The notes: a model not told the origin generated them from the letters alone. 64,000 nt of DNA from Pseudomonadota bacterium (GCA_040752855.1 JBFMHP010000001.1:45037-109036), one strand, 5' to 3'; shown: positions 13,918 to 43,475, counted from the first letter of the stretch. Made by a program: numbers and translations.

Positions 13918-13950
13918 GCGCCCATCCGGGCTAGTCTGCCGTCTGTCTCC

Positions 13951-13977: not shown

Positions 13978-14085
13978 GAGAGGGAACGTACTCAGCAGCC
14001 TTTTCGCATCTCGTAAAGCGTAAAGCCTTTTTGTGTAGTTTTTGGTAATTCCGTAAAATGACCGGCTTTTCCGGTCACTCCGCCA

Positions 14086-25319: not shown

Positions 25320-25650
25320 GCACAGATCCTTCGTGGGATGCGGTTTAGGCTACATGCGTTGCACGGAACACAGGCGCGACTAGCGCGCAGATTAACTTGT
25401 GGTAGACGCGATTTCATCTTACTGACAGTGTCATATGGTCCCGCACTTCGGTGGACCGCTATCGACCTTAACCGCCATCTGTAAGGGTGGTTTTGAGGAG
25501 TGGTATGATCCAAAAAGCAGTCATTCCTCTAAATTTCTCAGATGCCAGCTAGAGGCGTTGTCCTACGGGATCGGTTTCCAAAAGGTAGGTGTGTCCGCAC
25601 GCTAAGAAAAAGTACGTTTTTAATATTGACTTAACTTAACTCAAGCAAGG

Positions 25651-26478: not shown

Positions 26479-26717
26479 GCGCGTATCCTTTAGTGCGTAT
26501 TAATTAACCTCAGCCATAGCGTCCCTGGTGACTCATATTATTTAGGTTGCTACCGGGAGTTCTGACTTTTATCGTTTGGTTAATTTAATAATTAACAGTG
26601 TTAGAAATCTGGTTTTAACCCAGTTTTTGAAGGAGGTAGAGCTGCGAGCAAGTACGAGTGAACAAAACTCTGCTGTATTTACTTTACTCGCGCTCATAAA
26701 ACTAAGGCCTTGACCCT

Positions 26718-27692: not shown

Positions 27693-27759
27693 TGATATGT
27701 CCTTATTTAAAAATGATTCATGTGAAAAATTTGTACATTGTCTTCAAGTCCAACGACCG

Positions 27760-29634
27760 CTAGGCGATAGTTAACTCAGTATCCATTTGATTTGTAATGG
27801 TCGATGTTCTAGGTAGGAGCTCGAGTCTCGCTGAATGTTTGATACTTTTAATTCTGTCGATTGTCTGTTGAAGACTTTGCTCACTTCCATAATATTCAAA
27901 GAATTGTTGCCTAGCGCCATGCTCATAAATGAAAGGTCGGGTTTTTTGGCCATAACCAAATTCGACAATTGCATCAGTACTAGCTGGAATTAATTCATCG
28001 ATGGACTGGAATGATTGTGCCGAATACATAGGAATATTGGCCATATCCAGAATTAAATTTCGCACCTCATCTTTTGATGAGGCGATACCAGTACCATTAT
28101 TTGCCACAATCGGGATATCTGGCTCTAAAAATAAGATGTTTTCATCGACTATAAAGTTACTAATGTCGATTCTTGCTGCTGCAAGCTTTGGCGAGTGTAC
28201 GATTTCAATCGTTGGGCGCTTAAACTCTTTAACATTAATCGTATTTTTAAATGATTTGTTAATAAAAGCCATAACTTCATTGAAAATGCTATGATGTATA
28301 TATACATGGACTTCTTGCTTTTCCAAAGTAAGCGTTTGCCAACGGAAAACATCAATCCGTTCAGGGAACATACGCTGAATGTCTTTCAAATCGTGAATAA
28401 TCGAGCGTCCATCCAGGCTGACTATATGCCAAGTTCCAACGCTATTTGCATGTGCATATTTGTAAATACTACCCAAGGTGTAATTGGCAACTTTGATCCC
28501 GTCTTCCAGAGATAATGCATTGCTAGCAATAGCAGCTGCTATCATGCCATAACTTTCTCCACCGACACTATTAATTAAGAAATCACTGGATGAAGTTTTT
28601 AAGTGCTCAAACAGGGCAAGATTATACACTGTCATGGATGAGCCAATGTTATTCCATTTTTTGGCGACATCGTCATTCGATAACTCTTCTTCGAAGAAGA
28701 ATCGCGATACGTAATCGGTTCCTTGTTCCTGATTATGCTGACTTAATATTTCAGCTGAATCTTCGAATACTGAGCGTACTTTATTATTTCCTTTTTCGTA
28801 TAGATCTCTGGAAATATTGGTGTAAGAACGACGGCTGTTCATTCCAGGAAAATAGGCATGTAATGCAATTTTTTTTGTTTCTGGTATCCAGATAGGGTGA
28901 GTATTTAAATCAAGGCGATTTTTTTGAATGGCTATGTTTCTATCAATCACTGATGGGCTAATATTTTTACCTCGTTGACTCAAAGACAAATCAATCAATG
29001 CATGATATAATGTGGTAAAGCTTTCATCTGATTTATCCCAGTTTTCAACATGGTTTTCTATTAATCGCTTAACTAATGACTTGTCGTTGTTACTATCATG
29101 CTCTAACAGACGCTCAACCATTCCCATTTGGCTCAATGCTGTCAAGGTATAAGCAATTCTCATAAAACCAGACCGGTAAAACAAATTGGTCGGTTTATGT
29201 CCATTTTCGAAATCGTAAGTTGTTGATATATTTTCAATAAGCTTGTCAGCGAGCGAATCAGGTAAGGCATTCACAAGATTTAGTTTATGAGAAATATCCA
29301 CGCAGTACGTGTATGCCATATAATCTAATTCACTTTCATCAGCGCTAATTAACTTGTCAATGATGCTGAGCAGATACTCCTGGGTATTTTGGGTGAATCT
29401 ATGGGTTAGCCCTAAATTATCCAGAGTAGATAAACAATAGTGACTAAAAATTGCTTTCAAATTGATCGGTAACGTGTCGATAAGCTCGCCAGAGACTTTA
29501 ACCCAGTCTCGTTTGTATTCGAGGTACTTAAGCTCATCAAGAACGCCAATGCAGTTAACCATTAATAATATCGAGAAAACATATTCGTTGGGACGCTGCT
29601 CAACTCTTGCTCGATCTTCCAAGCTTGCATCCAT
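27760..29634 (-). CDS. Large protein with C-terminal FabD-like (malonyl-CoA:ACP transacylase-type) GxSxG acyltransferase domain. Likely the 3' part of a gene interrupted by an in-frame TGA.
   Basis: The SVGGESYGMIAAAIASNALSLEDGIKV block parallels the FabD GHSLGEYSALVAAGALSFEDALKLV block. It is in the same reading frame as the upstream 29755-30327 ORF. Confidence 0.55.
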   Translation of the reverse strand: MDASLEDRARVEQRPNEYVFSILLMVNCIGVLDELKYLEYKRDWVKVSGELIDTLPINLKAIFSHYCLSTLDNLGLTHRFTQNTQEYLLSIIDKLISADESELDYMAYTYCVDISHKLNLVNALPDSLADKLIENISTTYDFENGHKPTNLFYRSGFMRIAYTLTALSQMGMVERLLEHDSNNDKSLVKRLIENHVENWDKSDESFTTLYHALIDLSLSQRGKNISPSVIDRNIAIQKNRLDLNTHPIWIPETKKIALHAYFPGMNSRRSYTNISRDLYEKGNNKVRSVFEDSAEILSQHNQEQGTDYVSRFFFEEELSNDDVAKKWNNIGSSMTVYNLALFEHLKTSSSDFLINSVGGESYGMIAAAIASNALSLEDGIKVANYTLGSIYKYAHANSVGTWHIVSLDGRSIIHDLKDIQRMFPERIDVFRWQTLTLEKQEVHVYIHHSIFNEVMAFINKSFKNTINVKEFKRPTIEIVHSPKLAAARIDISNFIVDENILFLEPDIPIVANNGTGIASSKDEVRNLILDMANIPMYSAQSFQSIDELIPASTDAIVEFGYGQKTRPFIYEHGARQQFFEYYGSEQSLQQTIDRIKSIKHSARLELLPRTSTITNQMDTELTIA

Positions 29635-29754
29635 ATAAGATACAAGAGCGTTTAGCCGATGGTTTTCTGGTTTGGTGGCGTAATCTGATAAGCCAATTAT
29701 GCCCAGAACGGTTAAGAAGGCTGCGATTCCTCTTCCTTTGTGCCAAACGTCTTC

Positions 29755-30327
29755 TCAGCCTGTAGCTACGTTGAAGGCCTGATCAACGTAGTCGATATTG
29801 CCTTTGGTTAGTTTGTCTACCAAACCAATATGAGCAATGCCTAAGAATAGATTTCCGTAGGCCTGAAGCGCGATGTAGCATTCCTTTTCGTTTGAGGTAG
29901 GCAAGCACCCAAGCTGATTTAGCGCATCGTCAACTAGATCAATTTCCTTATTCATCCACAAGTGAGGGTCTAAGCCTAGCTTTCCGAAAGATTCAAATAA
30001 AACTGAACTTGCTGAAACGTACAAATTCGGATTATCTATTTTCTTTAATGATTCAATGATCGTTTCGATTCTTGGGTGTAATTCTTTTCGCTGGAAAAAT
30101 AGTATTTCTGGGTTATTGAAATCCAATATAAAATCACATAATTCCTTAAAGAACTGATTGTATGGATTTGATGTTACGATTGATTCGTCTAATACCCCGA
30201 ATATTTCCTTTATATAGTTGGATTCGATGGGGTCAAAGTTTTTTGTGTTTGCGCCAAGTCCCCGCCCTTTAACTAAAGTAGTCCATGGACCCTGCAAAGC
30301 TCTAGATTCATTTGTAATATTCAACAT
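29755..30327 (-). CDS. N-terminal segment (190 aa) in frame with the downstream acyltransferase-domain ORF. Separated from it by a single TGA at 29755-29757.
   Basis: Same frame as 27760-29634. The 40 codons after the stop read as protein-like (EDVWHKGRGIAAFLTVLGIIGLSDYATKPENHRLNALVSY-M...). Confidence 0.45.
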   Translation of the reverse strand: MLNITNESRALQGPWTTLVKGRGLGANTKNFDPIESNYIKEIFGVLDESIVTSNPYNQFFKELCDFILDFNNPEILFFQRKELHPRIETIIESLKKIDNPNLYVSASSVLFESFGKLGLDPHLWMNKEIDLVDDALNQLGCLPTSNEKECYIALQAYGNLFLGIAHIGLVDKLTKGNIDYVDQAFNVATG

Positions 30328-30331
30328 GATT

Positions 30332-31747
30332 TTAAGCCGCCTGCCTAGAGTCTGAAAACGGAACTGAAACGCCGTAGAATGTTAATGTTTTCCCTTCTAA
30401 CATTCTCAGTGCTAGGTTTAACCACTTTATTCCTTCTGCATAAATTGCCACTGGTCGGCGTTGATGCGTGTAACTGTCAACCATTATTCCGTCTTCATTT
30501 TTGTGAAAGTGAAATGGCGGCATTGCTGTAAAGTGTGTTCCCATTACAAATGCAAATCGAATTATCCAATTCGGATCATTCTTATTCATATCTGATTTGG
30601 GATTATCTAAGTCCCAGGCGTCATACATCACTGATTTGAAATGGCTTTCAATTCCCTCATATGATAATGAGTAGGAGTGATTGTCATGAGGGATAACTTC
30701 AATACTCATTCCGTCATGATTTTTATTTATCTTTAGGTCAAATAGTTCACTATGAATAACGTCATACTGGCCTAAAGAGTTATGCCATGGTTTATTGTCA
30801 TACATAGGATCATCAGACCCTGAATCTTCTCCATTTTCATGGAACCCAATTGCCCTTGGATCTAAAAATTTGATTCCAATGTCTTCAGCAGTAAAGCTAT
30901 AGTCTTTGGCTTTGATGAATCCAAGTAATGCATCCGGATTGGAAATTTTAATGTTTTCAGTATTGGTATCACCCATTACTAGGGTGTGGCGCAGTGGCTC
31001 CAGAATTTGCAAGTAATTCGGGTTACTTCTAAATTTCCTTAGTAGCGCCTTGATATTAAGTAGCTTAATGCCATCAATATAGATATTCTCCGTATTCAAT
31101 AGAGAATCTGAAAATACGCTTGATGAGGTTTCTCTAGATAACTCTAAACGCTTTTCTATTTTACGGAAATATGACTGCTCTAATGTTGGTCCAGAAGGTT
31201 TTCGGACTCGATTGCTGTGAATAATGCCATTTAGTGTGCGGTATATGACGACGTATATCCGAGCAACCGCTTCAACAGGAGGCTTGTGCTTGCGAATAAA
31301 CTCGCTGACCTCATCACCACCAATAAATGACATCTCGTAAATTAGCTCGTTTACTAATTCAGGTGTTCCGTCATTTGTTGCGGAAGCTCCGTTAGTTGAT
31401 TTTGGTACTTTTCTCTCAATTATACTGTCGACATATGGGAAGTACGGTTTTACAGTTTCAGGTAGGTTTTTAAGGTAGTGCGCCTGCTGTTTTGCCTTTT
31501 TGTAAGGAGCTAGCATTACATCTGTGCCGTCCCTATCCCATTTTGCGGTGATCAAATTTTCACTTAATATTTTCCGAACGATAGCAGCTGAATTGCCCGG
31601 TTTCTTTAAGAAAATTGTTAAGGACTCACTTCCGCCAATACCAAACCCTACGATTTTCTCTCCTGGGTTCATGTATTGACTGATAACGTCATCGTTCATT
31701 GGGATGTCTTTCTTGACGCCCGTATCGCTTGGTATTTCATTTTCCAT
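30332..31747 (-). CDS. Protein-kinase-like fold phosphotransferase (APH/ChoK-like), low-GC island
   Basis: Has a Gly-rich loop (GFGIGGSES), a Lys block (AAIVRKIL), a catalytic-loop-like LVMGDTNTENIKI and FLDPRA (D-x-G-like). 471 aa. Confidence 0.5.
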   Translation of the reverse strand: MENEIPSDTGVKKDIPMNDDVISQYMNPGEKIVGFGIGGSESLTIFLKKPGNSAAIVRKILSENLITAKWDRDGTDVMLAPYKKAKQQAHYLKNLPETVKPYFPYVDSIIERKVPKSTNGASATNDGTPELVNELIYEMSFIGGDEVSEFIRKHKPPVEAVARIYVVIYRTLNGIIHSNRVRKPSGPTLEQSYFRKIEKRLELSRETSSSVFSDSLLNTENIYIDGIKLLNIKALLRKFRSNPNYLQILEPLRHTLVMGDTNTENIKISNPDALLGFIKAKDYSFTAEDIGIKFLDPRAIGFHENGEDSGSDDPMYDNKPWHNSLGQYDVIHSELFDLKINKNHDGMSIEVIPHDNHSYSLSYEGIESHFKSVMYDAWDLDNPKSDMNKNDPNWIIRFAFVMGTHFTAMPPFHFHKNEDGIMVDSYTHQRRPVAIYAEGIKWLNLALRMLEGKTLTFYGVSVPFSDSRQAA

Positions 31748-31953
31748 GCTGCACCTCCTTGTGGTTTATCGAGTATTTTTATGCCTTTAAAGACTTATTG
31801 TTTATGCTGTTGAGTTAATTGTTTTTTTATTGCTTTTTTGCTAGCGAAGAGGCTTACTCCTCGGCTATATTCTTTGGGTTTGCTCGCCGCTATAAAGATT
31901 AACCCGACGATGCTGTGCGCGGGCTAACCCTGAAGCGTCGATTGTTATTCTTC

Positions 31954-32913
31954 TTAAATTTCAATAACAATCTTTCCTCGGGTGTGGCCTGACTCGCTCT
32001 TCTCGTGGGCTTTGGCGATATCGTCTAGGCGGAAAACGCTGTCAACTTCAACGGTAATATCTCCAGAGTCAATTAGCTCAGAAATTTCCGATAATTGGTC
32101 TGAGTTGGCTTGAACAAAGCAAAAGTTAGCGCTTACTTCATGCTTGGCTGCAAGCTCTTTGTTTGGAATTTCTGCGATTGAAATCAGGCAACCACCTCTC
32201 TTTAAAGTTGCCCAGGATTTTTCTAAGACTTCGCCACCCATGGTGTCGAATACGATGTCGAAATCTGCCAATTTAGAGAAATCTTGCTGGGTGTAGTCGA
32301 CTACTTCATCGGCACCTAGACCCTTCAAAAACTCAATATTTCGACTAGATGCGGTGGTGTAAACGGTAGCGCCTGCTTGTTTGGCAAGCTGGATTGCTGC
32401 AATGCCTACGCCACCAGCTCCAGCATGAATCAGGACACGATCGCCTTGTTTCATATGGCCGATATCGTTCAAGGCTTGCCATGCTGTTAGTGTGACTAGC
32501 GGTACAGCTGCTGATTTTTGCCAGCTTAGTGTTTTAGGTTTGGCCGCGATTTTATCTGCCGATACAGTGATGTACTCAGCATACGCGCCATTTTTTGAAA
32601 GGTCCGAGTGAGCGTACACGGCATCGCCAACACGCCATTTTTCGACATTCTTACCAACAGCGGCAACTTCGCCCGCAAAATCCCAGCCTAAAGTTAGAGG
32701 AAGTGCATGAGGAATAATTTCAACCAAGTAACCTTCGCGAATTTTCCAATCGACAGGATTTACTCCCGCAGCATGAACTTTGATCAAAACCTCACTTTCA
32801 GCTGGTTTTGGTATCGCAACGCTTTCCAATTTCATTTGTTCTGCGCCTCCGTAGTTGTGAATTCGTACGGCTCTCATTTGGCCTTCATTCATAGTGTTCA
32901 TTGCATTCTCCAT
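31954..32913 (-). CDS. Zn-dependent/MDR-family NADPH:quinone oxidoreductase
   Basis: MRAVRIHNYGG...LIKVHAAGVNPVDWKIREG plus a GAGGVG NAD(P)-binding motif. The true start is probably the internal Met (MRAV, about 32877). Confidence 0.85.
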   Translation of the reverse strand: MENAMNTMNEGQMRAVRIHNYGGAEQMKLESVAIPKPAESEVLIKVHAAGVNPVDWKIREGYLVEIIPHALPLTLGWDFAGEVAAVGKNVEKWRVGDAVYAHSDLSKNGAYAEYITVSADKIAAKPKTLSWQKSAAVPLVTLTAWQALNDIGHMKQGDRVLIHAGAGGVGIAAIQLAKQAGATVYTTASSRNIEFLKGLGADEVVDYTQQDFSKLADFDIVFDTMGGEVLEKSWATLKRGGCLISIAEIPNKELAAKHEVSANFCFVQANSDQLSEISELIDSGDITVEVDSVFRLDDIAKAHEKSESGHTRGKIVIEI

Positions 32914-33009
32914 TTACGCCGTAACTGGCGACTTGATTAATTTATCCAACTAAAAGCGCGTGCTTTATTTACATCGTGGGAGAAGTTTAAACAGGAAAAT
33001 GCCGCTTGA

Positions 33010-33023
33010 TTAGACATCTCTAA
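33010..33023. promoter_or_regulatory. Candidate LysR box (TTAGA-N4-TCTAA dyad) in the divergent QOR/LysR intergenic region
   Basis: An imperfect T-N11-A-type dyad about 85 bp upstream of the LysR start. Confidence 0.3.
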
Positions 33024-33105
33024 CGCACTAGACTGTTTCCATATACTCAACAATGGACGTTTGTGTGCCTCTCTATTTCGTTACACAGTAGGTGTTTGGT
33101 TATCA

Positions 33106-34023
33106 ATGAACAGCAAACGATTAGATAGTTTGCCGACTTTGGTTCTGTTTGCGCGCATTGTTCAATATGGCAGTTTGAGTGCGGCAGCACATCACTCTGG
33201 CTTGAGTCGTTCTGCTGTGAGTAAGCAATTGTGTGCACTAGAAGAAAAACTCGGCATTCGCTTGCTGCAGCGCAGTACTCGCAGTGTTAAGTTGACTGAG
33301 GCTGGAAAGCAGGTTTTGGGCGAGGCTATGCTGGTACAGGAAGCTTTTAATAGGGTTGAAACCTTATCGGAAGAGCTGCAAGGCCAAGTACGTGGCCACC
33401 TAAAAGTTTCTTGTTCAGCAGGTATTGGTCGTGTTCACTTAGTGCCTTTGGTCAAACAATTCCGTGCACTCTATCCGAAAGTACATGTGCAATTATTACT
33501 GGAGGATAGATTTGTTGATTTAATCGATGAGCAAATCGATGTGGCAATTCGTGTCGGCCATCTTCCTGACTCCTCGTTAATAGCATTGCGACTTGGAGAA
33601 ATGACCTGGGTGGTTTGCGCAAGTCCAGAGTACTTAAGTAAAAACGGTACCCCAAAAACCCCAACAGACCTACTTCAACATGATTGTCTTCACTATCGAA
33701 ATAGTCAAAGTGCTTTTGACAATTGGTTGTTTATGGGGCCAAATGGCGAGGAGAGAATTTCAATTAATGGCTCCCTCTCAATTAATGATTCAACAGCTTT
33801 AGTTCAGGCAGCTGAAGATGGTCAAGGAATTGTTTGGATTGATAAAAATTCAGTCGGTGATGCGTTTGAAACCGGTCGCCTTGTTCAGGTTTTGCAAGAC
33901 TACTCCCTGGGGATTGGCTACCCTATTTATGCGTTATATCCAGCGCGACACCATCTTCCTGCAAAGACGCGAAAATTTGTTGATTTTTTAACCGAACATT
34001 TCTCACCAAGTATACAGCGTTAA
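33106..34023 (+). CDS. LysR-family transcriptional regulator
   Basis: N-terminal HTH (LPTLVLFARIVQYGSLSAAAHHSGLSRSAVSKQL) and LysR substrate-binding domain. Divergent from the quinone oxidoreductase. The ORF begins at 33061 but the conserved start is MNSKRLDSL. Confidence 0.85.
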   Translation: MNSKRLDSLPTLVLFARIVQYGSLSAAAHHSGLSRSAVSKQLCALEEKLGIRLLQRSTRSVKLTEAGKQVLGEAMLVQEAFNRVETLSEELQGQVRGHLKVSCSAGIGRVHLVPLVKQFRALYPKVHVQLLLEDRFVDLIDEQIDVAIRVGHLPDSSLIALRLGEMTWVVCASPEYLSKNGTPKTPTDLLQHDCLHYRNSQSAFDNWLFMGPNGEERISINGSLSINDSTALVQAAEDGQGIVWIDKNSVGDAFETGRLVQVLQDYSLGIGYPIYALYPARHHLPAKTRKFVDFLTEHFSPSIQR

Positions 34024-34309
34024 ATAGGAAATATATTTTCTTTAATATCAATTGGCTGCAATGGAATAGTTGAACATAATAAGAAAATCGACGCAAGAAA
34101 GTGGGATGGCAGGTGAAATGGTTACCCCATGAGATCCTCGTTTGTATTACTAATCAATGGCGGCTCTGTCTATTTGGGAGACCTTCCTGGAGTTACATTC
34201 TGATGTCCGCTTTTGAGGAGGTTCAAGAGTACTTGGTTTTTTCGATAACGGCGGCTATCAGGATAAACCTGCCATCTTAATGGGATGGCCAACTGACTGT
34301 TTATTAGTC

Positions 34310-35010
34310 GAGAACAGCCTTCCGCAGCTTGATTAATATGGGCACTGTTTGTTAGATGAAGTCACGACAGCCATCGTCTTAACTCCTTAAGCATTCACCC
34401 AATCCGTAATCCTTTGCGACATCCGCAACATGTCGCGGCGTTGAGCGTTGCCTCAACGCCCCCTCACGCATCGAGCAGCCTGCCAATCCTTTGAAACAAA
34501 TAACGATATTCGCATTTCTCCATAATTGGCACGGAGAATGCGAAGGCTCAGATACGCCGTGAATGTTCGAGTTTTAACAGCGGGCACAACAAATCGCCCC
34601 GATTTGTTGTTCGACACGAAGAGTATCGCCATGAGACACGCGTTGACCATGACCACCCTATTACAGGAAAACCAAATCTTCTGTGGTACCGGAGGAGTAA
34701 GCACCGCCAATCGCGCATACCGCTTTGTGCCGGCATTCCAGGATACCGCCACTGGCCGAAACTACGTTTCACGATTCGCCGACGGACGCGCCGCACCCTG
34801 TCATCTGCTGGAGGGGTTGCCGGATGAGTTGGTGGTTGAGCGTTCCGAACGGGGCGCTGTTACTAGAATCAAGGATTCAGTCGTCTCGGGCTTTCTTCGT
34901 GGAGGGCGTTTCTATACACGCGCGGAGGCGGCCCAGATCGTGGCCATCTAGCCTGGATTTCTTTGCGTCCTGCAATCGGTTCTATCGCTCAAAGCAAAAT
35001 TCAGAATTTT
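34310..35010 (+). repeat. Copy 1 of the segmental duplication. Contains the full small gene X and its downstream region.
   Basis: 34310-34380 matches 39132-39200, and 34826-35010 matches 39205-39395 (about 85% identity). Copy 2 lacks about 440 bp in between. Confidence 0.75.
34631..34951 (+). CDS. Hypothetical small protein 'gene X' (106 aa; an alternative start at 34526 gives 141 aa)
   Basis: ORF with an RBS-like GAAGAG upstream. Its 3' 40 codons are duplicated at 39205-39324 with mostly conservative substitutions. Confidence 0.4.
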   Translation: MRHALTMTTLLQENQIFCGTGGVSTANRAYRFVPAFQDTATGRNYVSRFADGRAAPCHLLEGLPDELVVERSERGAVTRIKDSVVSGFLRGGRFYTRAEAAQIVAI

Positions 35011-35169
35011 TGTTCCTATTGAATACTATCGCCGCTTCATAACACCGCTTCGACCCAACCTTCTTTCGCACAATACGCTCGGTAAGATCAACGGATGCTG
35101 AACTTCAATGGCTCTTCTGCAAATACCTCGCTTGCATTGGAGTATACCAGCCGCAACCCGCTGTGGTCT

Positions 35170-35187
35170 GCCACAAATACTTGTGGC
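35170..35187. promoter_or_regulatory. Perfect palindrome GCCACAA-atac-TTGTGGC (candidate enhancer/UAS site)
   Basis: Conserved as GGCCACAA-atgc-TTGTGGCC at 40845-40864. About 105 bp upstream of the -24 element in both copies. Confidence 0.5.
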
Positions 35188-35275
35188 CTGACCGACCGCA
35201 GTCGTCACTCCAAGATCTGCTCACGAGACACATATCCTGCTGATCTGAAATCCATTTATTGCGCAGAACGCATGT

Positions 35276-35290
35276 TGGCGCAGCGCTTGC
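35276..35290 (+). promoter_or_regulatory. Sigma-54 (RpoN) -24/-12 promoter TGGCGC-N5-TTGC
   Basis: GG and GC are 12 nt apart. The consensus is TGGCAC-N5-TTGCW. About 80 nt upstream of the CCP-like start. Confidence 0.6.
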
Positions 35291-35383
35291 CATGCGGTAC
35301 ACGTGCACAAACTCTTCGACTGAAGACAGCGGCACGAAGTTAAGTCTCAACTCACTACTTCAATTCAACTAAGGAGATTGATC

Positions 35384-37591
35384 ATGCGCACAGTCACCAA
35401 CATGAGAAACAATCCGAAGTTTCGATCTGCAAGGTTAATTGAACGACAAGGACGTTCAGGGGTACCTCGGCATCGGTCTTTGGCCAAGACTGTCGGCGCG
35501 CTGGCCGTTGCCCTGTTGTGTGGTACTGCTACGGCCGCTGTCGATGATCGCGATTCTGGTCTCGGCGCCCCGCAGTTGCGTCAATTCGTCGATCAGCAAG
35601 TCGGCGGAATCCAGAAGTTGATGGTTCCAGCAAAGAATGAAGACCTGCCACAGCCACTGGGCACGGACGGAAAGCCGGACCCGCGTTTCAAGACCACCGA
35701 GGCGAAGCGTTATCTCGGCAAACAGCTTTTCCATGACCCGGACCGGATGGTCAGGATCGATCCCGCGTTCGGCGGCCTCCCGGAAACGGCACGGACCGCC
35801 TCTTGCGGTACTTGTCACCTGGGCGAGGCGGCCTCCAAAGCCGGCACCCTGTTCAACTTCGCCGTGGGTGGCGAGGGACGCGGCTACACCGACGCGAAGG
35901 GGAACTTCATTGCACGCAGGCGCCCCGACCTTGCCATTCTCCCGATGCTGCGACAGACGCCCTTGTTTCCCGGTGACGCGCTGGTGGATGAGCTACCCAC
36001 CCTCCAGGACGTCTACCGCGACAAGAACACGGGAGAAATCGTTGCCGGCAGCCCCGCCTTGCAGCGCAAGCTCGATCGTAGTGTTTTTGATCTGATCGCA
36101 ACCGGCCGGCTCGACGCCTTAGACAGCGTCGGGCGCAACGCGCCGAGCGTGCTCGGCGCCGCCTTCAACAACCGTCTGTTGCAGGGCGGCTTCGCAGGCG
36201 AGCCCGACTCCGCACCCGGGGGCTTGAACCCGTTCGGGTTTGTGGCGCAAGAAAGCGTGGCACTCTTGCTGCTCGACGCTCACCGGCTGCTCGAAAAACA
36301 GGCCAGCGAACTCGAGAAATTCGCTACATTCCGGCTATTGTTCCGCCAGGCGTTCCCCGAGGAAGCCGCCCAGGCGCCCGGCTGCGTGCCCGAGTCTCCG
36401 CCTGCTCAAGGTGCTTGTGACGCCCTGATCAACGACATGACCGCCTTGCGGGCGACGGCGACGTTCATGCGAACCGTGGTCACTCGCAACACGCCGTGGG
36501 ACAAGTTCTTGGCTGGAGACAACAGCGCGCTCACAGATAAACAGCGGCGCGGGGCCAAGCTCTTTTTCACCAAGGCGGAGGATGGCGGCGCGGGTTGCTT
36601 TACTTGCCACAGCGGACCGATGCTCAACAAGCAGCCTAACGACCCCGATGTGGCGGGTATGGGTCAGTTCGTGGAAGAAAACTTCTTCAACCTCGGGCTC
36701 GCCGATCATCCGTTGCAGGCGCTGAATCGCACGGTGAGAGGGCCAGGTTTCCGCGACGATGGAAGAAGGGAAATCACCGGCAAAGACAGCGATGCCTTCA
36801 AGTTCCGCGTGTTGACCTTGCGGCAGTTGAAGGATGGCCGTTTCTTCTTCCACAACGGCTCGTTCACGAGCGTCAGGGACGTGGTGCAGTACTTCAACGC
36901 CGGTGTCCCACAGGACGCAGTGGCCGCCGCCGCGGGTACGCTGACACCGCGCTTCACCAATCCCCGCGGAGCCGGCTCGCTCCCCGGGCTAGGCTTGAGC
37001 GAGCGTCAAGTGGATGATCTCACCGACTTCCTCGAGAACGCGCTCTACGATCCAGCGTTCGTGAAGTTCGATCCGAACTCGACCACGGACACGTTCGAGC
37101 TCAACGCGCGCGACACGACCTACTCGAAGTACCGTCCGGATCTGGTGGCGGCCGGCAACACTGACGGCCACCCGATGATTGACGGCCGATCTGTGAGCGG
37201 AAAGCCGCAGAATAACGACGACCCGCTGTCTCGACGCGACATGGGAATGGAGTTCCTGGACGTGACCGCCCAGGCGGTCATCGCACTGGCCGAGTCGAAC
37301 ACCCGACGCGGAGGTCTTCAGCAGGAAGATGTCTACAAGATCACCAACAACAGTACCTCGATCATAGACACCCACCTGCTCGTGATCGCCCGCGGTCTGT
37401 CGCCGAACGTCCGGCTGGAAAACCGCAGTGGAGTCAGCAAAGCCGGCGATCCGTATCTGCGTGTGTTCTTGCCCGATGGCGTCCTGATGCCTGGCCAGAG
37501 CATCGACGTGACGTTGGTCTTCCAGAAGCCGCTCAAGGCGCCGCCGGCGCAATACTCGCTCACGCTGCTGTCGGGACAGGGCAACCCGTGA
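35384..37591 (+). CDS. Di-haem cytochrome c peroxidase / MauG-family protein with long C-terminal beta-rich extension (737 aa)
   Basis: Two CxxCH haem motifs (SCGTCHLGE and GCFTCHSGP) in CCP-like context. Start set at 35384 (AAGGAG-N7-ATG). The ORF begins at 35378. Confidence 0.75.
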   Translation: MRTVTNMRNNPKFRSARLIERQGRSGVPRHRSLAKTVGALAVALLCGTATAAVDDRDSGLGAPQLRQFVDQQVGGIQKLMVPAKNEDLPQPLGTDGKPDPRFKTTEAKRYLGKQLFHDPDRMVRIDPAFGGLPETARTASCGTCHLGEAASKAGTLFNFAVGGEGRGYTDAKGNFIARRRPDLAILPMLRQTPLFPGDALVDELPTLQDVYRDKNTGEIVAGSPALQRKLDRSVFDLIATGRLDALDSVGRNAPSVLGAAFNNRLLQGGFAGEPDSAPGGLNPFGFVAQESVALLLLDAHRLLEKQASELEKFATFRLLFRQAFPEEAAQAPGCVPESPPAQGACDALINDMTALRATATFMRTVVTRNTPWDKFLAGDNSALTDKQRRGAKLFFTKAEDGGAGCFTCHSGPMLNKQPNDPDVAGMGQFVEENFFNLGLADHPLQALNRTVRGPGFRDDGRREITGKDSDAFKFRVLTLRQLKDGRFFFHNGSFTSVRDVVQYFNAGVPQDAVAAAAGTLTPRFTNPRGAGSLPGLGLSERQVDDLTDFLENALYDPAFVKFDPNSTTDTFELNARDTTYSKYRPDLVAAGNTDGHPMIDGRSVSGKPQNNDDPLSRRDMGMEFLDVTAQAVIALAESNTRRGGLQQEDVYKITNNSTSIIDTHLLVIARGLSPNVRLENRSGVSKAGDPYLRVFLPDGVLMPGQSIDVTLVFQKPLKAPPAQYSLTLLSGQGNP

Positions 37592-37611
37592 CAGGTGCTT
37601 GAGAGTAACGC

Positions 37612-37642
37612 CCGCCAACCCGGAGCCCGCCTTCGCGCGGGC
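37612..37642 (+). terminator. GC-rich hairpin (CCGGAGCCCGC-cttc-GCGGGCTCCGG) after the CCP-like gene
   Basis: 11-bp perfect stem 20 nt after the stop. Weak T-tract. Confidence 0.4.
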
Positions 37643-38166
37643 TCCGGGGATTAAAGAAAGCCTTTATCTACTGAAACGTTCATTCTGAATTTCTGCAAAC
37701 AGGAAGATGAAGCAACAGAACAATCTCGCTGGTGACGAAGATTTGATCAACTGCGCCAGCGGCGAAACTAATTAAAGGGCTTTGGCCCCTAAAGTCAGGA
37801 TGGCGCTCACTTGGGCGCGAACTTTGGATTGCCGAAAACAACGGGTTATCGATCGCACTAAGACGTTGTCGGCGATCTTGACGGTGGATATTTGTGCTTT
37901 CGCGGTGACCAATTGCCAGACAAATTGAGGATACCCACCAGTCTATTTATTGTGTCTCCTTAGTTTATTGCGTCGTTCTCAGGTTGTTTATTGCGATTTT
38001 TTTGGTAGTTGGCTTGTTAATGATTGCAGAACGCTCGAGCGGCATGGGCCGACTATACTAAGTTCTCTACACACAGCGCGCTATCGGACGATTTCTTCGC
38101 CGCACCGCGGCACATTACCAGGCAGGCAGTTGTCGGAGTCCCTCAATCATGAAGGAGACATATATC

Positions 38167-39006
38167 ATGCACACGATAAGCGGAAGGTTCGGCTTCAGGC
38201 CAATCACTATTGTGTCGTCTATTTTGTGTTTGTTGGTCGTCTTTCTGATCCCTTTGGGTGGCCCTGGCTTAGCGGCCGCTGCCCCGGAAAGTTGGACAGG
38301 ACACCGAGGTAAAATTCCTTTCAGCAAAGCCAAGATGATCATCGAGTTCAATTCCACCGCTAACGAGGGCGTGGGTGATGTGGGTGTCCAGGTGTTACTC
38401 GACGGAGAACCCTGGCAGTCGCTTAAGATCGAAGACCCTGACGAGCGTACGATTCTGAATATCAGGGCCAACAGTAGCTTGAGGAAGCAAGGGCTTACCG
38501 AACTGTTTTTCGAGAGTTCCGAGCCGTCATTGGATGAGACTCCGCTCGCGGATTTTCTGGCCCGTTTTCCAGAGGGAAATTACGAGTTCGAGGGAAGAAC
38601 GATCGACGGACAGCAGATTGAAGGAGTGGCGACATTCACACATATCATTCCAGCTGGGCCGGTTATTGTCTCGCCAGAGGAGGGTGATACAGTGGACGTT
38701 ACTGAGCCCCTGAGTATCCGTTGGGAGACGGTGACTAGTAAGGTCGAAGGTTCTGGCGAAGGCGACCTTGAAATTGTCGGCTACGAGGTGATCGTCGAAC
38801 GAACGGATAATGACGAACTCGGCGCTGCCCCGCGCACATTTGACATCAAGCTCGCGGCCACTTCGGCGCCAGTCCAAAGCGCAACGGTTCCGCCGGAATT
38901 TCTCGAACCAGGCCGCGAGTACAAGTTTGAGGTATTGGCGATCGAGAAAGGTGGCAATCAGACTATCTCGGAGGGTGGACCCTTCATGACCAACGCGACG
39001 CCCTAA
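38167..39006 (+). CDS. Secreted hypothetical protein with two beta-sandwich-like halves, downstream of the CCP-like gene
   Basis: GAAGGAG RBS 7 nt before ATG 38167. Has a signal peptide (ITIVSSILCLLVVFLIPLGGPGLAAAAP). The mature part has no Cys. Confidence 0.55.
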   Translation: MHTISGRFGFRPITIVSSILCLLVVFLIPLGGPGLAAAAPESWTGHRGKIPFSKAKMIIEFNSTANEGVGDVGVQVLLDGEPWQSLKIEDPDERTILNIRANSSLRKQGLTELFFESSEPSLDETPLADFLARFPEGNYEFEGRTIDGQQIEGVATFTHIIPAGPVIVSPEEGDTVDVTEPLSIRWETVTSKVEGSGEGDLEIVGYEVIVERTDNDELGAAPRTFDIKLAATSAPVQSATVPPEFLEPGREYKFEVLAIEKGGNQTISEGGPFMTNATP

Positions 39007-39131
39007 AATGCCGTAATACTTGCTCCGCCCGATCGTGCCCCTTTTAGCCTTGGCGGGCAACGACAACCGGGGGTACGAAGCGCATCAAGCGAGAAAAATT
39101 TTGTGAACGCAATACATTTGAATCCGCAGCT

Positions 39132-39395
39132 GAGAACAGCCTTCCGCAGCTTAATTAATTTGTCAGCTGAAATTACGACAGCCAATGTCTTAAATTCTTT
39201 CGGTGGTTGAGCGTTCCGAACGGGGTGCTGTTACCAGAATCAGGGATTCAGTCATCTCGGAATTTCTTCGTGGAGGGCGTTTTTATACACGCACGGAGGC
39301 GGCCCGGATCGTGGCCGTCTAGCCCGCATTTCTTTATGTCCTGCAATCAGCTTTACCGCTCAAAGCAAGATTCAGAATTTTGGTTCCAATTAAAC
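39132..39395 (+). repeat. Copy 2 of the segmental duplication (deletion derivative of 34310-35010)
   Basis: Collinear with copy 1 except for an internal about-440-bp deletion that removes the gene X promoter and 5' two-thirds. Confidence 0.75.
39205..39324 (+). pseudogene. 3' remnant of gene X (encodes VVERSERGAVTRIRDSVISEFLRGGRFYTRTEAARIVAV*)
   Basis: In-frame homolog of the last 40 codons of 34631-34951. The N-terminal part is absent. Confidence 0.6.
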
Positions 39396-39459
39396 AGCAA
39401 AAGTAATAATGGGCCATGCGACATCAGTGCAAACCACTACGCGGTACCCCGCTCTAAAA

Positions 39460-40689
39460 TTACCGCCACAGCGCGCTCACCGGCAGCGCAACATACTGGT
39501 CGCCAAACGGTATCACCTGATCACCGCCATAGAGCACCACGCCTCGGATAAATTTATCGCCCGCAGCCTGCGCCAGGGTTTCGAGGCCGGTGAGGTCTTT
39601 GCGGGTAAGCGATGCGGTGGCCTTGACCTCGACGCCGACTACGCGGCCGCGGGCGTCTTCGATGACCACATCGACTTCCCGGCCGGTGGTGGAACGGAAA
39701 TGGTAGAGCGATACGCGCTCTTGGGCCCAGCTCGCTTGTTTGCGCAGCTCGGCGACGACAAAGGATTCCAGCAGATGTCCCAGCAGTGTTGCGTCCTCGG
39801 CTAGGCGCTGAGAGGTCTGGCCTGTGAGATAGGCGGCCAGCCCGCTGTCGATGAGGTGGATCTTGGGTGATTTAACGAGCCGCTTGCCCAGGTTGGTAGA
39901 CCATGCCGGCAGCGGTTGGAACAGGAAGGTCATCTCTAGCAGGCTCAAGTAGCGCTTGAGAGTGGTGTGGGCGATGGCGGAGGCGCGCGACAGCTCGGAC
40001 ATGTTGAGCAACCCACCGGAACGCGCAGCGAGCAGGGCCAGGAGGCGTGGCATGTCGGTGAGTCCTTCGATGTGCGCCAGATCGCGGACGTCGCGTTGGA
40101 GGATGGCGGTGATGTAGGCGCCGAACCAAGCCTGGCGTCGGCCTGTATCTTCACGGGCGACGGCTTCCGGGTAGCCGCCGCCAATGATTTGGCTGAGGAT
40201 ATCAATACCGGTCTTTTCCGTATTCGAAAAATCGGGCAACCGCGGAGCAAAAACCGTATCGATGAACCGCTCAACGCGATCAGCAAGCTCTCCCTGGGAC
40301 AGGGGCCACAAGGGTATAGCCTCCATGCGGCCCGCCAGCGACTCGGACAATTGCGGCAGTAGCAGCACATTGGCCGAGCCAGTGAGCAGGAATCGCCCCG
40401 GGCGCCGGTCGGCATCCACTAGTATCTTGATGGCTGGAAACAGCCCCGGCGCCTTCTGCACTTCATCCACCACCACCATGCCCGGCAGGTTACGCAGGAA
40501 GCCATGCGGATCACCCACCGCGGCCGCCAGAGTCGTAGCGTCATCAAGTGTCACGTAGCGCCCCGCTCTCTGAGCGGCGATTTCTTGGGCCAGGGTGCTT
40601 TTGCCGGTCTGGCGGGCACCGTTGAGCAACACCACGGGGGTATCGCGGAGCACGGATTGGAGGTAAGGTTCGATATTTCGCCTGAACAT
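39460..40689 (-). CDS. AAA+ ATPase of the AAA_14/DUF4143 family (paralog of 15003-16454)
   Basis: Walker A LLNGARQTGKST. Same family architecture. Located as a 1.4-kb insertion inside duplication copy 2. Confidence 0.75.
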   Translation of the reverse strand: MFRRNIEPYLQSVLRDTPVVLLNGARQTGKSTLAQEIAAQRAGRYVTLDDATTLAAAVGDPHGFLRNLPGMVVVDEVQKAPGLFPAIKILVDADRRPGRFLLTGSANVLLLPQLSESLAGRMEAIPLWPLSQGELADRVERFIDTVFAPRLPDFSNTEKTGIDILSQIIGGGYPEAVAREDTGRRQAWFGAYITAILQRDVRDLAHIEGLTDMPRLLALLAARSGGLLNMSELSRASAIAHTTLKRYLSLLEMTFLFQPLPAWSTNLGKRLVKSPKIHLIDSGLAAYLTGQTSQRLAEDATLLGHLLESFVVAELRKQASWAQERVSLYHFRSTTGREVDVVIEDARGRVVGVEVKATASLTRKDLTGLETLAQAAGDKFIRGVVLYGGDQVIPFGDQYVALPVSALWR

Positions 40690-40820
40690 GGTGAAATATT
40701 AGCCATCACGTGGTGAATTTTCAACCACGCGACGTTGCCAAACCAGAAAAACCTGGTGCCCACTGAAAATATATCCACCCGCCTGCGGTAGTTCTAGGGA
40801 CAGAACTAATTCGAATTTAT

Positions 40821-41071
40821 CGCCAACCGCAACCCGTTGTGGCCGGCCACAAATGCTTGTGGCCTGACCGTCCGCAATCGCCATTCAAGGTCTCCTCGCA
40901 AGACTAATATCCTGTTGATATTAAATCAATTTATTACTCAGGACGCATGTTGGCACAGCGCTTGCCATTAGGTACACGTGCACAACGTTTTCGTCTGAAG
41001 ACAGCGGCACGAAATCAAGTCTCAAGTCACTACTGCAATTCAACTTAAGGAGATAAAACATGCGTACCAAA
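40821..41071 (+). promoter_or_regulatory. Leader copy 2 upstream of bufA (UAS palindrome 40845-40864 plus sigma-54 promoter)
   Basis: Homologous to 35147-35395. Confidence 0.75.
40951..40965 (+). promoter_or_regulatory. Sigma-54 -24/-12 promoter TGGCAC-agcgc-TTGC (exact consensus)
   Basis: TGGCAC-N5-TTGC with GG-to-GC spacing of 12 nt. About 95 nt upstream of the bufA ATG. Confidence 0.65.
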
Positions 41072-41329
41072 ACAGTCGTCACCTCAGCATTGGCCACCGT
41101 CGTAGTTCTGGGCATCGTGGCCACGGCCTCGGCGCAACCGGCCGCGAAACCGAAGTATGACTTCGAAAAGTGCTATGGCGTGGTAAAGGCTGGCAAGAAC
41201 GATTGCCAGACGGCCAACAGCTCCTGCGCCGGGACCTCGAAGATGGACGCCAACCCGACCGCCTGGATCTATGTGCCCAAGGGGACGTGCGATCGCATCG
41301 TCGGTGCCAGCACCCAACCCAAGGCATGA
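41060..41329 (+). CDS. bufA: DUF2282-type secreted Cys-containing precursor peptide (bufferin BufA-like)
   Basis: 89 aa. Has a Sec signal peptide (MRTKTVVTSALATVVVLGIVATASA). The mature region carries 4 Cys (EKCYG, NDCQT, SSCAG, GTCDR). Immediately precedes the DUF692 gene. Confidence 0.75.
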   Translation: MRTKTVVTSALATVVVLGIVATASAQPAAKPKYDFEKCYGVVKAGKNDCQTANSSCAGTSKMDANPTAWIYVPKGTCDRIVGASTQPKA

Positions 41330-42213
41330 GGATGCAGAGCATGATTCCTTCCGCGAACAATCATTTCGCAGTGGGACCGATTCCGGCGCAAGCCGGAATC
41401 GGATTGCGGGCCGAGCACTATCATGAGGTGGTGGAGACCAAGCCCGCGATCGCCTGGTTCGAGGCGCACAGCGAGAACTACTTCGGTGCCGGCGGCCGTC
41501 CACTGTATTTTCTGGAGCGCGTCCGCGCCGATTATCCGGTGAGTCTGCACGGTGTGGGACTCTCATTGGGCTCCGCCGATGCACTGAACCTGCGCCATCT
41601 CGAGAAGCTGCGGGACTTGATTCAGCGCATCGAGCCCGGGCTGGTTTCCGAGCATCTCTCGTGGGGCTCGGTGGGCGGGCGCTATCTCAACGATCTGCTG
41701 CCGCTGCCCTATACCGATGAGACCTTGCGCCATCTGATCGAGCGCGTGCAACAGGTGCAGGAGTTTCTCGGGCGGCAGATCCTCATCGAGAACATTTCCT
41801 GCTATCTGGAATATGAAGACACCACGCTCGCCGAGCCGCAATTTCTCGCGGAGCTGGCGCGGCGCAGCGGCTGCGCGCTGCTGCTTGATGTCAACAACGT
41901 GTATGTCAACGCCGTCAATCACCGCTTCGATCCCTTTGGCTATGTGGCGGCGATCCCCGCGGATCTGGTGCAGGAGATCCATCTCGCTGGCCACACCCGC
42001 CGGCAGCTTGAAGACGGCGCGATCCTCATCGACACGCACGATCAGCTCGTCACCCCTGCGGTGTGGGAACTCTATCGCGCCGCGGTCGCGCGCCTGGGCC
42101 GCATCCCGACCTTGATCGAATGGGACAGCGATCTACCCGCGCTGGAGGTATTGCTCGCCGAGGCGGCGCACGCCGAGCAGGTGATGGAGGTGGGCTATGC
42201 CGACGTTGCATGA
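41326..42213 (+). CDS. bufB: DUF692 / MNIO (multinuclear non-haem iron-dependent oxidative) enzyme, BufB/MbnB/TglH-like
   Basis: TIM-barrel xylose-isomerase-like pattern (GIGLRAEHY, FEAHSENYF, LHGVGLSLGS, HLSWGS, IENIS, IHLAGH). ATGA start/stop overlap with bufA. Confidence 0.85.
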   Translation: MRMQSMIPSANNHFAVGPIPAQAGIGLRAEHYHEVVETKPAIAWFEAHSENYFGAGGRPLYFLERVRADYPVSLHGVGLSLGSADALNLRHLEKLRDLIQRIEPGLVSEHLSWGSVGGRYLNDLLPLPYTDETLRHLIERVQQVQEFLGRQILIENISCYLEYEDTTLAEPQFLAELARRSGCALLLDVNNVYVNAVNHRFDPFGYVAAIPADLVQEIHLAGHTRRQLEDGAILIDTHDQLVTPAVWELYRAAVARLGRIPTLIEWDSDLPALEVLLAEAAHAEQVMEVGYADVA

Positions 42214-42982
42214 GTTGCAGCAGGGTTTCACTGCCGCGGTGTTCGATGCAAACCGCATCGATGTCTGTCGCCACATCCGTGACAACGGCTTGTCCGCCGC
42301 GCGGCGCCTGCAGATCTATCGTCATGATGTCTTCACCAAGTTCACCGAGGCCCTGGCCGCGGTCTATCCGGTGGTGCAGCGCCTGGTCGGCGCAGCGTTT
42401 TTCGAACAAACCGCCCGGGAGTACATCGTGCACCATCCCGCGCGGTGTGGCGACGTGCAGGCCTTCGGCGACCAATTCGCCGATTTTCTCGCCGCGCTGC
42501 CGCAGGTCTCGGGGTTGCCCTATCTGCCTGATGTGGCGCGCCTGGAATGGGCCTACCACGAGGTCTTTCATGCGGCCGACGCGCCGCCGCTCGACCCGAA
42601 CGCGCTCGCCGCGCTGCCGACTGAAGTGCACGGGGCGCTGCGTTTCATGCTGCATCCCGCCGCGCGGCTGCTGCGCTCGAACTATCCCGTATTGCGCATC
42701 TGGCAGGTGAATCAATCCGAGGCTGACCCCGCCGAGGTGGTGCGCCTCGATGAAGGAGGCGTGCGACTGCTGGTGATTCGGCGCGGGCTGGACATCGAGT
42801 TCGAGACGCTGAGCGAGGGCGCCTTCGCCCTGCTCGATGCCCTCGCGCACGGAGGCACCTTGGCGTTCGCGTGCGAGTGGGCGATCGCTGCGCAGCCGGA
42901 TCTCTCGCTCGTGCATTGCCTGAGCGGACACATTCAACGGGCGACCCTGGTGGGATTTCGCCTCGACTCAACTGCTAACTAG
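42197..42982 (+). CDS. bufC: DUF2063 partner protein (BufC/MbnC/TglI-like)
   Basis: 261 aa. Overlaps bufB by 17 nt. The N-terminus LQQGFTAAV...RLQIYRHDVF is typical of DUF2063. Confidence 0.8.
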   Translation: MPTLHELQQGFTAAVFDANRIDVCRHIRDNGLSAARRLQIYRHDVFTKFTEALAAVYPVVQRLVGAAFFEQTAREYIVHHPARCGDVQAFGDQFADFLAALPQVSGLPYLPDVARLEWAYHEVFHAADAPPLDPNALAALPTEVHGALRFMLHPAARLLRSNYPVLRIWQVNQSEADPAEVVRLDEGGVRLLVIRRGLDIEFETLSEGAFALLDALAHGGTLAFACEWAIAAQPDLSLVHCLSGHIQRATLVGFRLDSTAN

Positions 42983-42992
42983 GAGGTGCCTC

Positions 42993-43475
42993 ATGGCCAC
43001 CATCGCACACGTTCCAAGCAAACCCGTCCAATTCTCGCTGCTGCGCTCGGCCAAGGCATTCATCCGCGGTCTGGACTTCTTGAGCCCGGTGGGCGATCTC
43101 ATCGTGCGCCTGTATCTGGCGCAGGTGTTCTTTCAGGCGGGTCTCACCAAGATCCAGAGCTGGGACAGCACCGTCGCCCTGTTTACCTACGAATACCAGG
43201 TGCCCTTCCTGCCGCCGGAAATCGCGGCCTATATGGGCACCTTTACCGAGCTATTTTTCCCGGTGTTGCTCGCCGTGGGGCTGGCGGGACGCTTCAGCGC
43301 GGCGGTGTTGTTCATCTTCAACATCATCGCGGTCGTCTCCTACCCCGGTCTGATGGAGGCGGGCGTCGAGCAACACAAGGTGTGGGGCATCCTGCTGCTC
43401 ATGCCCTTGTTACACGGCCCCGGCCGGCTGTCGCTGGATTACTTCATCGCCAAGCGATTCTTTGGCGGTGTCTGA
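42993..43475 (+). CDS. bufD: DoxX-family membrane protein (BufD-like)
   Basis: 160 aa with 4 TM helices. Has the DoxX pattern (RLYLAQVFFQAGLTKI...GRLSLD). Confidence 0.8.
   Translation: MATIAHVPSKPVQFSLLRSAKAFIRGLDFLSPVGDLIVRLYLAQVFFQAGLTKIQSWDSTVALFTYEYQVPFLPPEIAAYMGTFTELFFPVLLAVGLAGRFSAAVLFIFNIIAVVSYPGLMEAGVEQHKVWGILLLMPLLHGPGRLSLDYFIAKRFFGGV

Follow-up and report, generated by a model that had tools for sequence, protein, structure and literature searches.

A probable ancestral segmental duplication places a bufferin-type sigma-54 control cassette before a di-haem peroxidase gene and leaves a decaying gene remnant

Introduction

Promoter capture by duplication has its textbook case in rnk-citT, where the tandem duplication studied by Blount et al. 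in 2012 reportedly lies behind the Cit+ phenotype of the Escherichia coli long-term evolution experiment. Di-haem enzymes of the MbnH/MauG kind occur with partner proteins, as in the MbnH-MbnP pair of copper-related operons. Bufferin (Buf1) clusters, bufABCD, have been described by Leprevost et al. 2024 (PMC11626156; PMC12452194), and control in the published clusters is described as being exerted by pairs of an extracytoplasmic function (ECF) sigma factor and NrsF (PMC11626156, PMC12452194). Here we analyze a 64,000-nucleotide stretch of a Pseudomonadota bacterium (GCA_040752855.1, JBFMHP010000001.1:45037-109036), henceforth the window, in which a segment of about 1.1 kb, carrying a small gene (gene X) and a sigma-54 promoter module, is duplicated: one copy precedes a MauG/MbnH-like di-haem peroxidase gene, the other a bufferin operon. 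A single ancestral segmental duplication followed by decay is, in our judgment, the likely overall account of this arrangement.

Results

Self-BLASTN of positions 34000-35400 against 38900-41100, together with a repeat search, defined three blocks, A, B and C, which share order and orientation in the two copies (E 2e-8 to 1e-65; plus strand, as for all features below unless stated). Block A is non-coding, lies at 34310-34388 on the 5' side of an enhancer-like dyad of gene X, and recurs as A' at 39132-39199 with an internal deletion of 11 nt; BLASTN recovers it as two sub-matches, 34310-34337 with 39132-39159 (28 nt, 96%, E 2e-8) and 34348-34382 with 39159-39193 (35 nt, 83%). Block B (34831-35023) consists of the last 39 codons of X, the stop codon and about 72 nt of 3' flank, and returns ungapped as B' at 39202-39394 with approximately 89% identity (34831-35020 versus 39202-39391 in BLASTN: 88.9%, E 4e-65). 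Block C (35147-35391 and 40823-41067) is conserved to 84-85% (35147-35388 versus 40823-41064 in BLASTN: 84.4%, E 1e-65). BLAST found no further copy of A, B or C elsewhere in the window.

The intervals between the blocks differ. A and B are separated by 442 bp in copy 1 (34389-34830) and by 2 bp in copy 2, and B and C by 123 bp in copy 1 (35024-35146, the spacer) and by 1428 bp in copy 2 (39395-40822). Copy 1 accordingly reads A, X, B, spacer, C1, peroxidase gene, hairpin and fn3-like gene, and copy 2 reads A', B', an ATPase gene on the minus strand, C2 and bufA-bufB-bufC-doxX. An earlier sequence-only reading of this region had proposed that two stretches recur beyond a common leader, and the self-alignment confirms collinear blocks outside that leader; the repeat is, however, larger than proposed, in that the leader (block C) is itself part of it and A' reaches left to about 39091 when aligned with a related contig.

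For comparison, two long related contigs (L001 and L093) and three short ones (L087, L094 and L095) were used. The long contigs derive from the closest long relative, the Chromatiales metagenome-assembled genome (MAG) GCA_964557295.1, as its contigs 5 (L001) and 24 (L093); the short ones are Logan contigs (L087, L094 and L095 from runs SRR22387807, SRR22387948 and SRR22388166), of which L087 and L095, 1.4 and 1.25 kb long, have edges near the repeat boundaries.

Block C appears to be a complete sigma-54 control cassette and plausibly constitutes a shared regulatory module. Copy 1 holds four CCRCAA/TTGYGG half-sites (35151-35186), a -24/-12 element (35276-35290), a 5' untranslated region (5'UTR) of about 83 nt, a ribosome-binding site (RBS) and the start ATG-CGC-AC; copy 2 holds the half-sites at 40827-40862, the sigma-54 element at 40951-40965, the 5'UTR, the RBS and the ATG-CGT-AC of bufA, the RBS of the block being AAGGAG. 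The -24/-12 elements, TGGCGCAGCGCTTGCC at 35276 and TGGCACAGCGCTTGCC at 40951, are the only zero-mismatch matches to TGGCRC-N5-TTGCH in the 64 kb, and their GG and TTGC are invariant among the relatives. In both copies the four half-sites alternate with a 10-bp period and form two dyads, CCGCAA-N4-YTGTGG and CCACAA-N4-TTGTGG, 20 bp apart (at 35151 and 35171, and at 40827 and 40847), 90-125 bp upstream of the promoter. Among 83 loci (79 genome loci with X homologues and L001-L004), the C-type dyad was present in L001/L005 only, and the cassette is therefore likely lineage-specific. A metagenome scan with GCCACAA-N4-TTGTGGC-N75-100-TGG..C-N5-TTGC returned three matches, all of them unrelated chance matches.

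A candidate activator is encoded at 23430-25319, where domain matches identify an enhancer-binding protein of GAF-PAS-Sigma54_activat-HTH_8 architecture. Since this gene immediately precedes X in L001 and L095, and since a dyad ahead of X shares the half-sites of block C, the protein probably activates X and both C cassettes, and with them the peroxidase gene and buf. As to other signals, Rfam produced no match in 33900-41400 at E <= 1, so blocks A, B and C do not correspond to known RNA families, and a scan for sigma-70 promoters and terminators gave no more hits than shuffled sequence. The 5'UTR (35302-35345 and 40977-41020) has a possible hairpin, whose CGUGC/GCACG and UCUUCG/(C)GAAGA stems are invariant in six sequences, with no covariation.

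The second cassette opens the bufferin operon at 41060-43475: bufA (DUF2282) 41060-41329, bufB (MNIO) 41326-42213, bufC (DUF2063) 42197-42982 and doxX 42993-43475, with Pfam E-values of 2e-24, 3e-107 and 3e-25 for the first three families and 4e-18 for DoxX, in agreement with the Buf1 signature. Among the genes scanned, no ECF sigma factor/NrsF pair was found beside it. The first cassette leads into the peroxidase gene (35384-37591, 735 aa; Pfam CCP_MauG, 43.6 bits), for which the best NCBIfam match, TIGR04039 (MbnH family), scores 90.6 bits and stays below the cut-off of 362.85.

The junction between cassette and peroxidase gene suggests the direction of transfer. The homology between C1 and C2 runs past the start codon and through five more bases (ATG-CGY-AC), giving the peroxidase a MRTVTN prefix (codons 35384-35401) ahead of a native-type start, MRNNPKF, at Met7. 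BufA homologues usually start with MKT or MRT (MKT in 27 of 120), and homologues of the peroxidase begin near Met7 of the window protein with an M-x-N-x-P-K-W/F motif; the MRTVTN prefix occurs only in the two peroxidase genes that bear block C, those of the window and L001. As the MRT start is of bufA type and the prefix is confined to cassette-bearing peroxidases, the cassette was likely copied from bufA to the peroxidase gene and not the reverse; bufA seems to be the native place of the start codons, which the peroxidase gene received as six extra, grafted codons. The start annotated by NCBI lies 32 codons downstream (703 aa). Peroxidase orthologues found elsewhere (82% and 75% amino-acid identity) come without X, C and the fn3-like gene.

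The duplicated small gene is intact in copy 1 (gene X, 34631-34951; 106 aa, MEW5754730.1), as the sequence-only reading had it, and is a real gene: a database search gave 19 homologous 90% clusters. Relatives were found at 115 or more genome loci (at least 115) of Gamma- and Betaproteobacteria, and a profile search collected 637 cluster-50 representatives, mostly of 105-160 aa. No Pfam, NCBIfam or PADLOC family matched the protein, and its AlphaFold2 (AF2) model, with a predicted local distance difference test (pLDDT) score of 75.7, had no significant fold match in the PDB. Among the intact copies (window, L087, L095, L001), the ratio of non-synonymous to synonymous substitution rates (dN/dS) is 0.08-0.19, and X bears the marks of a genuine conserved gene under purifying selection. 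Ahead of it are the dyad TTGCGA-CAT-CCGCAA (34414-34428), a predicted activator-binding site with the half-sites of block C, and a sigma-54-type promoter, TGGCAC-GGAGA-ATGC (34527-34541). The dyad is kept in L001 (twice), L087 and L095, the promoter is conserved in the relatives, and both are deleted in copy 2. Upstream of X homologues generally, sigma-54-like elements are enriched about nine-fold (18 of 82 versus 43 of 1740 controls).

Several further observations concern the X family. In about 15 of 80 loci, activator-like genes are found no more than 10 kb from X. Marinobacterium is among the genomes in which members of the family adjoin buf operons (L037, L044, L067, L070), and rare long forms contain GAF, ART-PolyVal, integrase SAM-like or phasin domains.

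In copy 2, gene X is reduced to a remnant at 39203-39322, equivalent to residues 68-106, that lacks the sigma-54-type promoter, the upstream dyad, the RBS and the 5' 66 codons. The relatives have four X copies, a pair in L001 and single ones in L087 and L095; all four are full length and retain the 442 bp that are missing here, so the difference is due to a deletion in copy 2 and not to an insertion in copy 1. The internal loss of about 440 bp postulated earlier is thereby borne out. An in-frame 3' piece has indeed been kept, although it amounts to 39 codons and a stop rather than 40 codons, and the description of its changes as mostly conservative fits some of the six amino-acid replacements but not G87E, which strikes a family-invariant Gly. 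Between copy 1 and copy 2, dN/dS of the X segment is 0.70, as against the low values of the intact copies, and the remnant branch has five non-synonymous and three synonymous private changes, compared with 6 and 17 on the other branches (few sites; Fisher p 0.09). The remnant appears to evolve without constraint.

We consider it very improbable that A' and B' have instead been retained for a function, be it as a 39-aa peptide from the GTG at 39203 or as a cis-element or 3' UTR for the neighboring genes. Such retention would be congruent with a frame that is open from a possible GTG start to a preserved stop codon, with the 88-89% identity of B to copy 1 and with a non-coding tail that is recognizable in five sequences. 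No Shine-Dalgarno or promoter-like element was found upstream of 39203, however, and neither a dN/dS of about 0.7 nor the replacement of an invariant Gly by Glu is what retention predicts; moreover, in the related MAG the fragment is down to approximately 30 nt, a pattern of decay.

The interval between B' and C2 holds an intact gene on the minus strand (39460-40689) for an AAA_14 and DUF4143 ATPase (Pfam E 2e-47 and 9e-26), within the 1428-bp segment. DUF4143 has been placed among the PD-(D/E)XK nucleases (PMC3424549). The protein matches PADLOC candidate PDC-S01 (PDLC04790, E 1.4e-170, 2-409 of 409 aa), its defence role being a candidate assignment. L087 has the order X-B-spacer-C-bufA minus the ATPase, which argues that the gene is secondary; a remnant of it occupies the corresponding position in L093 and L094. 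No convincing terminal inverted repeats, target-site duplication or transposase were detected at the segment ends, and a split alignment in which the first 12 nt of the spacer are possibly kept before C2 performed no better than shuffles. The spacer is present in copy 1, L001 and L087 and missing from copy 2, and the ATPase segment appears to have replaced it, as opposed to a clean insertion. The view that the ATPase gene was inserted into one copy can thus be kept as regards its secondary nature (1428 bp versus 123 bp in copy 1), but the segment took the place of the spacer. L095 comes close to a locus with the ATPase here and no duplication, but falls short of it: its intact X leads into 14 nt that match the ATPase-side junction. 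On an unrelated metagenome contig (L092 3040-4170), a distant DUF4143 ATPase (24% identity) stands divergently upstream of a peroxidase orthologue, which may be a coincidence or a recurrent association.

The Chromatiales MAG offers a second view of the locus. L001 begins with HipA and the activator gene, continues with X' and an island, and then has X, B, spacer, C and the peroxidase gene. Its cassette-peroxidase junction is that of the window, and its last 55 nt are the first 55 nt of L093; the two contigs are collinear with the window on either side. Past the overlap, L093 carries buf and stays collinear with the window for at least 7 kb. Upstream of its bufA are a 30-nt trace of B' (score 34 versus a maximum of 22 in 500 shuffles) and an internally deleted ATPase remnant, matching window positions 39474-39547 and 40644-40732. 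The buf-side C of L093 has diverged, with the -24/-12 element and dyad symmetry kept; in this block (3196-3335) the half-sites are altered to CCACAG-N4-CTGCGG and CCGCGG-N4-TTGCGG at unchanged spacing. L094 resembles L093. Because GCA_964557295.1 shares the junction, the B' trace and the ATPase remnant, the duplication and the ATPase acquisition would have preceded the divergence of these genomes; the events appear old, not recent, and the relative seems to show a later stage of decay.

Of the short contigs, L087 comprises the tail of A, X (93% amino-acid identity), B, spacer, C, BufA (96%) and BufB, with neither ATPase nor peroxidase gene. L095 comprises the 3' end of the activator gene, a 70-nt element, A, an intact X, B and then the 14 nt of copy-2 ATPase-side junction, not the spacer. 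L096 begins inside bufB, so it offers no upstream context, and in the 90% clustering each of the ATPase, fn3 and peroxidase proteins stands alone.

L001 also contains a second duplication at X, in which 2999-3856 and 9385-10308 (95%), each with the activator 3' end and X, flank an island that bears genes of S8 peptidase and PatG-like type. An inverted-repeat insert of 185 nt lies at L001 9653-9837, and a REP-like sequence, CCCTCTCCCGCAGGCGGGAGAGGGCTGGGGTGAGGG, occurs at 13948-13984 in the window and at differing positions, 3117-3153 and 9502-9538, in L001.

The left boundary of the duplicated unit is marked by the 70-nt element (AATTTTGTGAACGC...CTACATTTGAAAG), present in full at 6231-6298 of the window, in part at 39091-39131 and at 452-522 of L095. 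Alignment of L095 300-640 with the window shows that the element precedes A there (A at L095 523-600), and that the left extension of A' at 39091-39131 is a truncated remnant of it. The stretch 6231-6340, with the full copy, is part of an inverted repeat. In copy 1, the left edge of A adjoins a low-GC island (25466-34309; 37-45% G+C versus 55-70% in the flanks), which lies between the sigma-54 activator gene and block A and codes for an SDR, a zinc-ADH and a LysR regulator, besides four ORFs that match no Pfam family. L095 has only the 70-nt element at the position of the island, and the copy 1 edge at 34310 appears to have been set by later insertion of the island, which displaced the element.

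A repeated element next to block A, in the window (6231-6298) and in L095 (452-522), and REP-like sequences nearby in L001 might raise the idea that A and B stem from a small mobile or repetitive element of MITE/REP type, or from an assembly artefact. This is scarcely credible: A, B and C occur just twice each in the 64 kb, B forms the 3' end of a protein-coding gene that is conserved, and the blocks are collinear, with copies that are 85-89% identical as opposed to identical. Furthermore, the arrangement is shared by an independent MAG, and no terminal inverted repeats or clear target duplications were found.

Several points weigh against a single ancestral duplication with decay as set out here. 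The left boundary is uncertain, the low-GC island having removed the upstream sequence of copy 1; sigma-54 dependence, the identity of the activator and co-regulation are deduced from sequence; and the relaxed constraint on the remnant is drawn from those few sites at a Fisher p of 0.09. The short contigs could be pre-duplication states, products of recombination (collapse) or partial views of two-copy genomes. At the informative sites of block B, the window copies share five, versus one or two for the other groupings, and the B' trace of L093 resembles the B of its own genome. Such within-genome similarity suggests a later or independent duplication, or gene conversion. Finally, the tree of block C is star-like with a long C2 branch (18 private changes) and gives no topology.

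As the structural evidence puts the duplication before the genome split, gene conversion would be the best reading of the within-genome similarity, in which case the identity of the copies (B1-B2 88-89%, C1-C2 85%, against C1-L001 89.5-89.8% and C1-L087 88.6%) cannot date the event. Dating by four-taxon site patterns was tried and set aside for too few sites (B 5/2/1, C 2/2/1), confounded by the likely gene conversion. An interpretation of the L087 block C as a recombinant of C1 and C2 was likewise abandoned, the pattern consisting mostly of private changes of C2 and being not diagnostic.

The variety of arrangements among the relatives bears on another origin, which we regard as possible yet rather unlikely, namely that a circularised or transferred fragment of a related genome, with X-B-spacer-C already fused to the peroxidase gene, entered a resident X-B-(spacer/ATPase)-C-buf by a single, Campbell-type crossover, leaving direct repeats of the homology region on both sides of the incoming DNA (H-Y-H). 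Each of three arrangements is found in a relative: X-C-buf in L087, X-C-peroxidase in L001 and intact X with the ATPase-side junction in L095. The second repeat of L001 is an independent H-Y-H at the same gene, around the S8/PatG-like island, and divergence between the window and L001/L093 is uneven by segment, from 81% identity (X, peroxidase) to 89% (buf onwards), in keeping with recombination among lineages. On the other hand, the common order peroxidase ... B'-ATPase-C-buf in two genomes is simpler to obtain from one ancestral event, the segment is without integrase, plasmid or transfer genes, and the fusion of cassette and peroxidase still requires an illegitimate join somewhere.

A more general version, in which the X-to-C segment is a recurrent recombination platform capturing cargo, seems to us improbable. 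In its support, X-containing direct repeats flank differing foreign DNA, namely the peroxidase gene and variable segment in both genomes and the S8/PatG-like island in the Chromatiales MAG, and two contigs, L087 and L095, which have the look of collapsed or alternative arrangements, are found together in related samples. Were it true, the sigma-54 cassette and its passenger gene would form a homology handle that repeatedly recruits genes to a metal-stress regulon.

Under the preferred account, a single segmental duplication with decay, the copied unit would have come from upstream of buf and comprised the 70-nt element, A, X with its own promoter, B, the 123-bp spacer and C, ending two to three codons into bufA. 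The new join lies 18 nt upstream of the native peroxidase start and equips this gene with an M-R-T start as well as buf-type enhancer sites, a -24/-12 element, a 5'UTR and an RBS. Tandem duplication, the route proposed in the sequence-only reading, is one of several mechanisms that fit; bufA codon 3 would then have been newly joined to the 5' region of the peroxidase gene. The GAF-PAS enhancer-binding protein probably co-activates the peroxidase gene, X and the buf operon. With X redundant, the buf-side copy would have decayed, losing the 442 bp (dyad, promoter and 66 codons) and 11 nt in A', and the DUF4143 ATPase gene would have taken the place of the spacer in the same copy. The 39-codon leftover would be a functionless piece of pseudogene, untranscribed and drifting neutrally.

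Downstream of the peroxidase stop codon, a G+C-rich hairpin of 12 bp (37619-37648, z -2.9) is likely a terminator, and the homology with L001 ends there. Beyond it, the gene for an fn3-like secreted protein (38167-39006; weak fn3 match, 279-aa NCBI product) lies in a lineage-specific variable segment. Its start (NCBI, 38167) is 575 bp past the peroxidase stop, and no homologue was found in 96 related loci, the loci of the peroxidase orthologues included; in the Chromatiales MAG, the matching segment of about 6.4 kb contains unknown ORFs. Consequently, the CCP-like/partner operon of the sequence-only reading is doubtful, the fn3-like gene being no conserved operon mate. The shared regulatory module that the reading proposed is plausible in view of the perfect -24/-12 elements and dyads in both C copies and of an activator gene upstream. 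On the whole, that reading is borne out in what it observed and in part of its interpretation.

Discussion

Aggregated, the data point to an entire sigma-54 control cassette, start codon included, that would have been copied from the operon of a copper-binding peptide to a di-haem peroxidase gene, and whose duplication has left footprints at differing stages of decay in two genomes. Three predictions follow: the bufferin operon of the window would be under the control of sigma-54 and an enhancer-binding protein, the peroxidase gene would be co-induced with it, and gene X, from an uncharacterised small-protein family with 637 cluster representatives, would belong to the same regulon.

The remnant of X is what ordinary bacterial pseudogene decay produces after duplication and deletion, a truncated 3' paralogue fragment with no promoter or start and a dN/dS risen towards 1. 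The sole unusual point is that different stages of the decay are visible in two related genomes.

With MbnH/MauG enzymes, the window protein has in common the CCP_MauG domain, MbnH as the best NCBIfam match and the copper-peptide context. It is nevertheless about twice as long as the TIGR04039 model (735 aa versus a profile of 336 positions), with a score far below the cut-off. The MbnH-MbnP arrangement is not reproduced either: the gene downstream of the peroxidase is not MbnP-like, has a weak fn3 match, is set apart by 575 bp and a hairpin, and is missing in the relatives.

The likeness to the described Buf1 clusters lies in the four signature genes at 41060-43475. Unlike the ECF sigma factor control described for published clusters, the promoter in the window looks sigma-54 dependent, with an enhancer-binding protein encoded nearby, and sigma-54 control of buf would represent a regulatory variant.

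The closest parallel is rnk-citT, where, as proposed here, a novel junction puts a copy of an upstream regulatory region before a gene formerly under other control, with repeated flanks as the footprint. In contrast to rnk-citT, the module of the window appears as a complete cassette of sigma-54 enhancer, promoter, 5'UTR, RBS and start codon, and the event is a natural and apparently old one, with 85-89% identity between the copies, common to two divergent MAGs. A further difference is that in the window the redundant passenger gene would then have decayed and an unrelated ATPase gene have been acquired. The duplication as such is ordinary genome evolution and no new kind of system, and the locus is a good natural example of promoter capture and regulon growth.

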